Positions 12,060 through 15,000 of a stretch of DNA of 64,000 nt are shown piece after piece. This DNA comes from Deltaproteobacteria bacterium (GTDB taxonomy: Bacteria > UBA10199 > JACPAL01). The notes below the pieces were generated by a model. It had not been told where the DNA came from, searched no databases, and saw nothing but the letters and a program-made list of their open reading frames with translations. The stretch lies in the NCBI GenBank assembly GCA_016180855.1, contig JACPAL010000002.1, positions 245,788-309,787 on the forward strand. Reading direction: 5' to 3'. Positions within the stretch are counted from its first letter, which is position 1. Every line of letters begins with the position of its first letter. The position numbers and the translations under genes are program-made.

Positions 12060-15000
12060 ATGATCGACTTATATGGATTCGAAGGGGGACCGATAAGGCT
12101 GCCAGGGGAGCGGTTTGGGTTATTTAAGGGTGTAGATCCCGCAGCCCAACAGGCGGCGCAACGCCAGATGGAAGATCGTCTCAGGCAAGAGGGTCGGAAT
12201 GAGATGGCGGCTGAGGCGGCCGATCAGTGGATCAAGCAAGGGACCGGGCTTCGATTTCAACAGGATGTGCTTGACGGGGCGGATAACCTTGAAGAGGCGG
12301 CCAAAAAGGCCGGATTGGATACCTTTGAGGTCCAGAATCCAAACTGGCGGAACTGGAATTTTAGTATCGATCTGCCGGGCTCCAGGAATGATGATGATAA
12401 TAACGCCTTTTTGGCCCGCTTAAAACAGGCAGTCACCTCGAGCGCTGCGTCGAGCAGTGATCCTAACGGCGAAAAATTTTGGGACAGGCATTATGGATCG
12501 GTCCTCAAATTGATGAAGGAGAAGGCGCCTGATATCAGTGGGAATGCGAAGATGGACGGCTTCAGTGAGTGGAACCGGATTGACGAGAAAGAGAGGGTGA
12601 AGCTCCTTCATTTTGCGGTCGTCGCGAATAATCTTAAGGAGAGGATCAAGATAAAGGAGCATCCCGATATCATACGGCTCAAGATGCGCGTTCGGGCGGC
12701 CGTCGAGAAGATGTTTGATGCGGGCAGTAAGAAGGAAGGGACATTTGATCAAGAGACCGTTGAGAGGGTGACCGAATTCCTCATGAGGCAGAATGCCCCT
12801 GTGGAGGCGCTTGAGTTGGTCTCGGACGTTGCGGCCGAGAAACTGCGCCCCGAAGAACTTAAAGAGAAACTGGCGAAGTATGGTTCGTGGGCCCTGAACA
12901 TCTTCTTTATGAAGGAGATGATCTGGAGTTTTCTGGCCGACACCTCCGTTGGTAAGAAGGTACGGCTCGATCGGGCCGAGCGATGGCTTCAACAGAGATG
13001 GGCCGGAAAATCAGGCCTTGGTCGGTTTTTAACCGGTGTGAGGCCCCCTCCAGGCCTTGCGGCCCATGAGAATGCCGCAAAATTGGGAGGTCTTTTTATA
13101 AGGCCCGATCATCCCGTCCTGGATCCTGCCGTTCAGGCCGATCCGGTCCGACTCCACGCCGCCTTCCGGGATCTCGTTTTTGAAAATATTAACTTGGAAT
13201 GCGATGTGAAGAGGCAACCACGGCCGGGTGAGGTCGAACAGAGGACTCTTAAGTCCCGACAGCAGGCGGCAAGAAAACATGCGACAGCGGCTATAAGGGG
13301 TGAGCCACCCGCCTCTGCAGAGGCATTGTCCTACGACCTTCGTGGTCAGCTACGCCCCGGTGAGACCGTTGTAGCGCCGGAGATTTTAAAGGCCCGCTCA
13401 AAGATAGCGAAGCAACAGCTTGCCGCGATGACTCGTGGTGCGCCCCTTTCGCCTGTCGCAGTCCCTTCAGTTACTACGACACCTGCTCCATCGGCTCCAG
13501 CAACTCCTGAGACACCCGTGGTGTCGGATCCAGCGGCGACTTCAGCCACTACACGGGTTCCAGGCGCCTCGGCCACTTCTTCTGGTGGTAGGGCTAGTGC
13601 AGCGGTATCTGGCGATATAGGTACTCCTCCCCCTCCTCCGGCATCGCCACCTTCTCCGCCTGAAACAACTGTTTTAGGTGAGAGGAGCGGCGTTATTGAA
13701 TTGCCTGAGGCACCTCCCCCGACCGAGCCCCCTGCTGGGGCGCGTGCTCCATCGGGTAGGGCAGTTGCGCTGGCACAGGCAAGCAGTCTTGTCGCCTGGG
13801 TCGTCCTGTTTCGAGGGGCCCATATCGCTGTTGATTTTTTGGCAACGAGCCCCGAGTCACGAGAAAAGGGACATACCGCAATAGACTATGTAGGTGGTGT
13901 GGGCGGCACAGGATTGTTGTTTTATCTCTCTGCAACGAGCAAGAGCCTATTACCATTAGGAGTCGGCTTAGCTGGGATAGGATGGAGGTCAGTTGCCGAT
14001 GATGTGAGTGATTGGTTCTCTGTCGGTGGGTGGGAGAAGCCATCTGGCTGGAAAGGAGTCGCCTTTGAGGCCGGTCTTGACGTCGCCTCTCTAGGTGCCG
14101 GGGCACTTTCGATCGGTTCTGTTTCCGCCGCCAACGCGGCCGCCGTTGCTGCTGGGACGGCAGAGGGTAGCTTTCTCATCGGTGGGGCGAGTGCAACCGT
14201 GGGTGCCGGCGCAGCCCCTTTCGCTGGTGCCATCATCGCAGGTTTTGGGATCGGTTACGCGATTGGAACGGGAGGCGTGAAGGCGGCCGAGGCGCTTGGG
14301 TTTGATCCGATCGGCTGGACGGAGAGGAACGTCTTTGGACGGCTCTTTGGGACACCCCGCGCAAAGTATTCAGAAGGGACGGCGACAACCCCGGGGACCC
14401 GCGTCACGGTCGATGCAAGTGGCAATCCAACAGGCTCCCAGTCCTATACCCAGCTTGAGTTCAAGGGGGATCTTGTTCGTGACGACAACGAGGTGAAGAT
14501 GGTCGATGCCAAATCGGGTCAGGATATCGGCTGGAGCTTCCTCAATCCCGATCGCGTTAAATTCAAGAAATTCGAGATGCCTAAATTGGGAGATGACGGA
14601 AAACCGGTTCGACTAAAGGACAAGCAGGGGAACTTCATTCAGGCAAAAGGCAAGGATAATAAGCTCATGACCGATGGGGAAGGGAAGCCGATCTATGAGA
14701 CCGAAAAGACGGAGAAGCCGATTGAGGTCAGTGCGTTTGAGAGGAACATGAAGATCTTAGAAGAGGTTTATTTGAATAACGGCAAGGCGAATGAGGAAGG
14801 GCAGTATGTCATTACCGACAATGGGCCAGAAAAGGTTCCAGAAGGGAAGACGCCTACCAAGGATGCGAAGAAGCTGTTAGGAAAAGAGGCGTATGCGTTT
14901 GCGCTCGATCGATACATGCGCCGATTGAATAAGTGGACAGAGGATCACCATGGAAATACCACAGAGGGGCACAAATTGATTCTGAAGCTGCTTGATACGA

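Follow-up and report, generated by a model that had tools for sequence, protein, structure and literature searches.

Two dissimilar proteins encoded beside a type III secretion system (T3SS) in an uncultured bacterium begin with the same peptide of about 20 residues, which is most likely a dedicated recognition tag. Their genes, here called A and C, lie in the 64,000 nucleotides (nt) at positions 245,788 to 309,787 of contig JACPAL010000002.1 (assembly GCA_016180855.1), a stretch referred to below as the window. Its source is an uncultured metagenome-assembled genome (MAG) from groundwater-type assemblies that carries the NCBI label 'Deltaproteobacteria bacterium'. A more specific reading, which is drawn by analogy with known systems and in which our confidence falls somewhat short of even, is that the motif may be a lineage-specific linear docking peptide of A and C, recognised by a conserved cytosolic partner of the secretion pathway, most plausibly a chaperone of the SycD/LcrH type with tetratricopeptide repeats (TPR). 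Both proteins are regarded as translocator-like because of their hydrophobicity and their neighbouring chaperones. The preliminary description of this DNA had proposed a dedicated targeting, chaperone-binding or sorting role for the peptide, and such a role remains the best reading in view of purifying selection, the confinement of the motif to T3SS loci and the lack of a predicted globular domain around it.

Residues 1-25 of A translate as MIDLYGFEGGPIRLPGERFGLFKGV and those of C as MELWGFEREGETVPGERFGLFFGPP, exactly as first described. Each open reading frame (ORF) has an in-frame stop 8-10 codons 5' of its ATG as well as a GGAGG-type ribosome-binding site, so the two starts are the true N-termini. 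The motif is the only element that A and C have in common: BLASTP, which pairs them with an E-value of 3e-4, finds no similarity past residues 1-28, in line with the complete divergence that had been claimed for the remainder of both proteins. An E-value of this size is modest and could by itself reflect a chance resemblance of two N-termini. That explanation is refuted, since the pair is an outlier among the 1653 pairs formed by the 58 genes of the window, with an ungapped BLOSUM62 score of 68 against 34 for the runner-up (mean 10.5, sd 3.7; Gumbel-extrapolated family-wise p ~1e-6), and since every related locus has the peptide on both protein types, each time at this position. No further copy was found in the window with a six-frame regular expression or with a hidden Markov model (HMM) of the motif, to which the members score 43-50 bits and the next best sequence 6.4.

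Syntenic orthologues from other assemblies also begin with the peptide. In a second MAG (GCA_016180845.1; locus L002) the counterpart of A has 1081 residues and starts MEHYGFEGRFLSLPGERFGLLEGV, and the counterpart of C has 403 residues and starts METWGFEGRRSEMPGERFGLMTYE. A third syntenic locus, L017, holds A, B, C, D, TPR1, X and TPR2 contiguously; here A starts MELFGFENPSIALPGERFGLFEM and C starts MDFYGFEERSIAIPGERFGLLGG, and the motif is absent from B, D, X and both chaperones. From the seven distinct sequences available, which represent four or more lineages, the consensus is M-[DE]-x-[YWF]-G-F-E-x5-[LVIM]-P-G-[ES]-R-F-G-L-[FLM] with 10 invariant positions. The core of the consensus proposed earlier thus stands; its trailing F-x-G is not conserved across the seven. 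In all 7 the motif spans residues 2-22 at a fixed distance from Met1, always on A-type or C-type proteins, and its two conserved halves (GFE and PGERFGL) are separated by a spacer of constant length. More distant homologues of C, P0003 and P0004 (L005), are without it. The called start of P0004 is at 1846, and a conserved promoter, Shine-Dalgarno sequence and ATG indicate 1603 instead (L005:1603-2673, 356 amino acids, aa); read from there, the protein begins MPAPIMTINPEG and the motif is again absent. The motif is accordingly a lineage-specific feature, as the distant C homologues lack it. One NCBI MAG, with HYW02 locus tags, has gene A split into a motif-bearing ORF of 168 aa and an ORF of 863 aa (P0006 and P0005), probably through a frameshift or assembly error that hides the link between motif and hydrophobic body; its C copy, P0001, is missing 22 residues from the Gly-rich region.

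Searches of large sequence collections recovered the same two protein types only. When 1.84 billion proteins were scanned exhaustively with the motif profile in HMMER, three passed E<=0.001, all matched from residue 1: part of A itself, a 715-aa A-type protein (in L017) and a 487-aa C-type protein with the variant PGSRFGLF. This threshold corresponds to ~35 bits, so that weaker members may escape, and the library consists of cluster representatives, behind which other members are hidden. A degenerate DNA pattern matched 11 times in 185,579 GTDB species representatives, a set without the known carrier MAGs in which the clade is evidently unrepresented; these matches are attributed to chance because all are internal or in non-coding frames and score <=16.7 bits against the motif HMM. 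Two pattern scans of JGI metagenomes gave 0 matches, and the string PGERFG turned up in none of the papers of the library searched. A word-indexed profile search of 5.8 billion proteins with a 40-column motif alignment came back empty and missed the known members too, and it is not used as evidence of absence. Across the 1.84 billion proteins, the reference genomes and the JGI metagenomes, no carriers were found outside these loci; widespread occurrence in cytoplasmic proteins of organisms lacking a T3SS would have spoken against a dedicated signal. The same restriction undercuts the suggestion that the motif could be used to mine the genome for further substrates: in every locus, as in the protein scan, the tag is confined to the A and C families.

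Conservation of the peptide stands out sharply from that of the proteins that bear it. In the A family the motif block is 63% identical vs 17% overall and ranks first of 1008 sliding windows; in the C family the figures are 61% vs 29% and first of 414, above even the conserved C-terminal domain. The first 21 residues are the only similarity that BLASTP detects among A orthologues, and sliding windows over B, D and X revealed no N-terminal conservation peak. It could be argued that conservation acts on nucleotides, through an mRNA secretion signal, translational control or a DNA site, or that A and C recently underwent gene conversion, leaving the peptide functionless. The window copies do share an exact 20-nt run (CCAGGGGAGCGGTTTGGGTT), and their common promoter and Shine-Dalgarno architecture means that a module from promoter to codon 22 may have been copied as a unit. 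Nevertheless, the motif codons change at the synonymous background rate: identical motif residues use the same codon between genomes in 8/15 and 6/11 cases (0.53 and 0.55, genomic background 0.47), codons for P, R, L, G and F differ synonymously, and the invariant codons are those that the genome prefers (GGG 0.39, GAG 0.64, TTT 0.70, CGG 0.28). Folding of the motif mRNA is unremarkable (z-scores -0.45 to +0.80), with no structure common to the copies. Conversion within a genome, for its part, cannot explain conservation across lineages in which the rest of A has diverged beyond recognition. This whole group of explanations is therefore largely refuted and very improbable, and the idea of an RNA element is ruled out by the synonymous-rate and folding data. 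Because the codons drift at the background rate and the folds are unremarkable, selection must act on the peptide; codon and identity comparisons show strong purifying selection at the protein level.

Structure predictions do not assign the peptide to a globular domain, with the qualification that the models are of low confidence. AlphaFold renders residues 1-42 of C and 1-26 of A as coil that precedes structured regions, with predicted local distance difference test (pLDDT) values of ~26-34, in models whose mean pLDDT is 46.9 for C and 31.6 for A, the latter being essentially uninterpretable. Membership in a larger globular domain, which had been raised as the finding that would count against a signal, is thus not what these models predict for either protein. 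Foldseek returned nothing from the PDB at E<=0.001 for the C model, with IpaB 74-242 at E=0.2 among generic coiled coils. In composition, the first 25 residues contain 4-5 aromatic and 4-8 charged residues and, in 6 of the 7 sequences, 0-3 of S/T/N/Q; the N-terminus of D is classically polar and rich in S, T and N, and that of X is also ordinary and polar. The flagellar FxxxPhi signal, expected some 30-40 residues into the protein, is not reproduced: counting four positions on from the two invariant Phe residues leads to alignment columns 11 and 23 (7 sequences), neither of which conserves a hydrophobic residue. A leader of the type IV prepilin kind (G|F...E) was considered as well and rejected: polar or charged residues follow GFE, and the first 250 residues of A and C contain no hydrophobic segment.

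How might such a peptide work? Class II chaperones offer a precedent: a single short motif in the N-terminal part, shared by two dissimilar translocators and kept from species to species, lets them recognise both (PMC3443056; PMC13466201). By analogy, a conserved cytosolic partner would bind the motif, so that A and C would be recognised as one substrate class, and would bring both to the export gate. The most plausible candidate for this partner would be one of the two SycD/LcrH-type TPR proteins encoded in the C operon. TPR1 and TPR2 have TIGR02552 (LcrH_SycD) as their best family, with E-values of 3e-22 and 5e-24 over nearly the full model length, match SycD, PcrH, IpgC and AcrH in the PDB, and are 66-77% identical between genomes, far above their presumed clients. 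The motif would replace the canonical P/VxLxxP 'molecular anchor', of which no conserved instance was found in A, B, C or D of three lineages (a single non-conserved match occurs in A of L002), and the invariant F-G-L within PGERFGL would supply candidate hydrophobic anchor positions (Phi-x-L). Protein X, on the other hand, has a near-canonical anchor-like sequence, [RK]-[ED]-L-Q-V-P, conserved in three lineages and reading RELQVP in the window; it resembles the class II anchors VELNAP and PELIKP except at position 1, and X may, judging from this likeness, be a client of one of the two TPR chaperones. That two motif types, the A/C motif and RELQVP of X, serve the two chaperones is an attractive, unproven thought.

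Several points weigh against recognition by a chaperone. The motif sits at residues 2-22, where the secretion signal itself normally lies, and known chaperone anchors are found at ~residues 50-70, with the N-terminus left free; spacing from Met1 as strict as this is more readily expected of an export signal at the leading end than of an anchor for a chaperone. Its sequence is unlike P/VxLxxP. Both TPR proteins fall below the curated NCBIfam cutoff of 104.8 bits. No homology to known translocators could be detected for A or C, nor was the fold search informative in this respect. Finally, a secretin, needle, gatekeeper, SctU and SctV were not found in the DNA examined, namely the window and the DNA to its left, the latter holding only SctJ, a small TPR protein and unassignable ORFs.

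The main rival explanation is that the peptide is a class-specific export signal independent of any chaperone, read directly by the cytoplasmic domain of SctU or SctV, by the sorting platform (SctQ/K/L), by the ATPase or by a gatekeeper, and that it determines where A and C rank in the secretion hierarchy. We consider this rather unlikely, even though much of the evidence above would suit it. The motif starts at residue 2 or 3 in 7/7 sequences, at a fixed distance from Met1, and fills the 20-25 residues in which type III secretion (T3S) signals lie (PMC13466201), where a bound chaperone would leave the leading end hidden. Low-confidence models also predict no structure for this region. Two halves with a constant spacer would parallel the separately recognised signals of flagellar early subunits (PMC8983047), and the T3SS retains flagellar-like parts together with a FliA-type regulator. 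Set against this, D, X and the distant C homologues have ordinary polar N-termini, so that the apparatus evidently does not need the motif, and the aromatic and charged composition is atypical for T3S signals. In its strongest form, in which a non-flagellar T3SS has a genuine N-terminal export signal of the consensus type, read by the export apparatus or sorting platform, not by a chaperone, and defining a substrate class, the proposal is unlikely. If it were true, this would be a rare sequence-defined T3S signal, with a receptor that simple binding or co-variation experiments could find.

A role after export is improbable. The motif could then mediate hetero-oligomerisation of A with C, docking to the tip or needle (X, D), or an interaction with the target membrane by insertion or binding, and its limitation to two proteins with hydrophobic or Gly-rich segments that are expected to act together would be understandable, as would its aromatic, Gly-rich character, which could suit interfacial binding or a beta-hairpin. 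None of these functions requires a fixed position at residue 1, however, and the surfaces through which T3SS proteins interact outside the cell tend to change quickly in evolution, whereas the motif is the slowest part of both A and C. Docking to a cytosolic partner, with a TPR chaperone as the foremost candidate, is the reading that we tentatively retain.

A shared N-terminal sequence is unusual for T3SS substrates, since their signals as a rule lack a consensus. The WEK(I/M)xxFF translocation motif of Salmonella SPI-2 effectors, reportedly described by Miao and Miller in 2000, is likewise an N-terminal sequence common to unrelated substrates of one T3SS and an exception to the rule that such signals have no consensus. 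It lies inside a conserved N-terminal domain of ~140 residues and occurs on many effectors per genome, in contrast to the present case of a free-standing 20-mer at residue 1, carried by two proteins per locus that are translocon-like, not effector-like. The P/VxLxxP anchor (IpaB/IpaC with IpgC, YopB/YopD with SycD, PopB/PopD with PcrH), which occupies the TPR groove of class II chaperones, is also a short N-terminal linear motif on two dissimilar hydrophobic clients; the clients are encoded beside SycD/LcrH-type chaperones, and the motif is kept across species while they diverge (PMC3443056, PMC13466201). Here, by comparison, the sequence is GFE-x6-PGERFGL, ~19 residues long instead of 6 and placed at residues 4-22 instead of ~50-70, and chaperone binding is putative. 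Flagellar early (rod and hook) subunits combine a gate-recognition motif, FxxxPhi, that docks at FlhB-C with a hydrophobic signal located at the very N-terminus (PMC8983047). They resemble A and C in having sequence-defined, class-specific N-terminal signals, which in the flagellum are read at the export gate and have a critical spacing between two elements; they differ in that the halves here are 6 residues apart, not ~26 or more, that FxxxPhi is not conserved, and that this T3SS is non-flagellar and has SycD-like chaperones. Canonical T3S signals have no consensus and are polar and depleted in charged and hydrophobic residues (PMC13466201); the motif shares their position in the first 20-25 residues and, in low-confidence models, a predicted lack of structure, yet has 10 invariant positions and aromatic and charged residues. 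The closest functional analogue is the P/VxLxxP anchor and, in form, the SPI-2 motif and the flagellar gate-recognition signals; from all of these the motif differs in sequence, length and position.

Substrate recognition by T3SSs is still poorly understood because their N-terminal signals lack a consensus (PMC13466201). The peptide described here would offer a compact handle, with which the partner, be it a chaperone groove or a component of the export gate, could be identified using a synthetic 20-mer, and would stand in for the P/VxLxxP anchor in a flagellum-like, apparently early-branching injectisome lineage. Its reach is limited to a small uncultured clade and, with two marked proteins per genome, it is no tool for effector discovery.

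Expression provides a further link between A and C. Each heads an operon behind the same sigma-28-like promoter element (Table 1), and the pattern AACTC-N16-CGATAA occurs twice in the 64-kb window where 0.17 occurrences are expected by chance. A consensus GCAACTYG-N15-GCCGATAAT is kept upstream of A and C in the related loci and before a further T3SS operon; additional sites are at L020:335-362, L022:2522-2549 and L005:1555-1582, and one lineage with a C homologue devoid of the motif has the element as well. The -10 half, CCGATAA[TC], is suitably spaced from the start codons of A and C and equals GCCGATAA, which we take to be the sigma-28 consensus; the -35 element TAAA is not matched, the upstream half being GCAACTYG. 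The FliA/WhiG-family sigma factor encoded in the cluster is likely to read both elements. Given these shared promoters and this sigma factor, A and C are likely co-expressed 'late' genes, and the arrangement suggests, as far as promoter sequences can tell, that the secreted proteins of a non-flagellar T3SS are controlled in the manner of flagellar late genes.

Table 1. Features of the secretion locus, in window coordinates.
Feature	Position	Strand	Remarks
T3SS core genes	1..10709	+	SctJ (partial), SctI-like, FliG_C-like, SctL, N, O, P, Q, FliN-like, FliO-like, SctR, S, T
FliA/WhiG-family sigma factor	1521..2357	+	FliA/WhiG best family, E 1.8e-43
Sigma-28-like element AACTCG-N15-CCGATAA	12006..12032	+	ends 27 nt upstream of A start
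Gene A, 1027 aa	12060..15143	+	fast-evolving; candidate major-translocator-like substrate
Motif copy 1, protein A core Y5-F22 (YGFEGGPIRLPGERFGLF)	12072..12125	+	span first reported, 12060-12134, is residues 1-25
Gene B, 401 aa	15157..16362	+	motif absent; single hydrophobic helix aa 270-291
Sigma-28-like element AACTCG-N15-CCGATAA	16850..16876	+	ends 21 nt upstream of C start
Gene C, 433 aa	16898..18199	+	motif, variable region, Gly-rich segment, conserved C-terminal helical domain ending ...YSRFNV
Motif copy 2, protein C core W4-F21 (WGFEREGETVPGERFGLF)	16907..16960	+	span first reported, 16898-16972, is residues 1-25
Gene D, 516 aa	18199..19749	+	motif absent, polar N-terminus; C paralogue over C-terminal ~200 aa
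TPR1	19781..20386	+	SycD/LcrH-like (class II) chaperone candidate
Gene X, 287 aa	20399..21262	+	motif absent; C-terminus ...VIANFRG; RELQVP at aa 33-38 (20495-20512)
TPR2	21274..21861	+	SycD/LcrH-like (class II) chaperone candidate; most strongly conserved of the accessory proteins (77% identical to its L002 orthologue)

The cluster is a non-flagellar T3SS. Its core genes are followed by an opposite-strand AAA_14/DUF4143 insert, the operons A-B and C-D-TPR1-X-TPR2, an FHA/sigma-54 activator, a PEGA-domain kinase and housekeeping genes. Several parts of this injectisome cluster (2846-3841, 7222-8528 and 8530-8847) look flagellar: the protein at the SctK position has a FliG_C-like domain, SctQ is of the FliM+FliN type, and a separate FliN-like protein and a FliO-like protein are also kept. 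These parts are consistent with an early-branching T3SS lineage, for which the 'Myxo' systems may be compared (PMC3459982).

The proteins A, B, C, D and X have no family matches in Pfam, NCBIfam or the PDB, and PDB sequence searches with profiles of the C/D and X families found nothing. C and D are paralogues over their C-terminal ~200 residues (E 1e-20), and the C stop and D start overlap in TGATG at 18197-18201, which suggests translational coupling of the two. Profile comparisons of B and X with the C-terminal domain of C/D (hhalign E 4e-4 and 3e-4, probabilities 35-39%) hint at a single helical domain common to the C-termini of B, C, D and X. The last residues are ...SRFN[VT] in C and D (18100-18199 and 19650-19749) and ...VIANFRG in X (21200-21262); these termini recall the C-terminal helix of needle and tip proteins, as in PrgI (...IIQNFR). 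Hydrophobic Gly/Ala-rich segments lie at ~aa 566-596 and 711-740 of A. A simple Kyte-Doolittle scan marks several hydrophobic segments in each of the three A orthologues, one in the window's C (aa 304-328) and, at the threshold used, none in its counterpart C_L2.

The 535-nt region between B and C (16363-16897) contains a GC-rich hairpin followed by a T-run at ~16655-16692 (GGCCCGCCGG...CCGGCGGGCC-GTTTGGTTTT), which by eye looks like a terminator for the A-B operon. The junctions between sctT and A and between B and C are insertion hot spots (10701-12005 on the minus strand in the window; L002:2467-3134 and 7908-9800; L017:897-1558), except that B and C are adjacent in L017 with no insert between them. 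The inserts comprise an AAA_14/DUF4143 ATPase gene and toxin-antitoxin pairs of the PIN/Phd or ParE kind, in combinations that differ by lineage.

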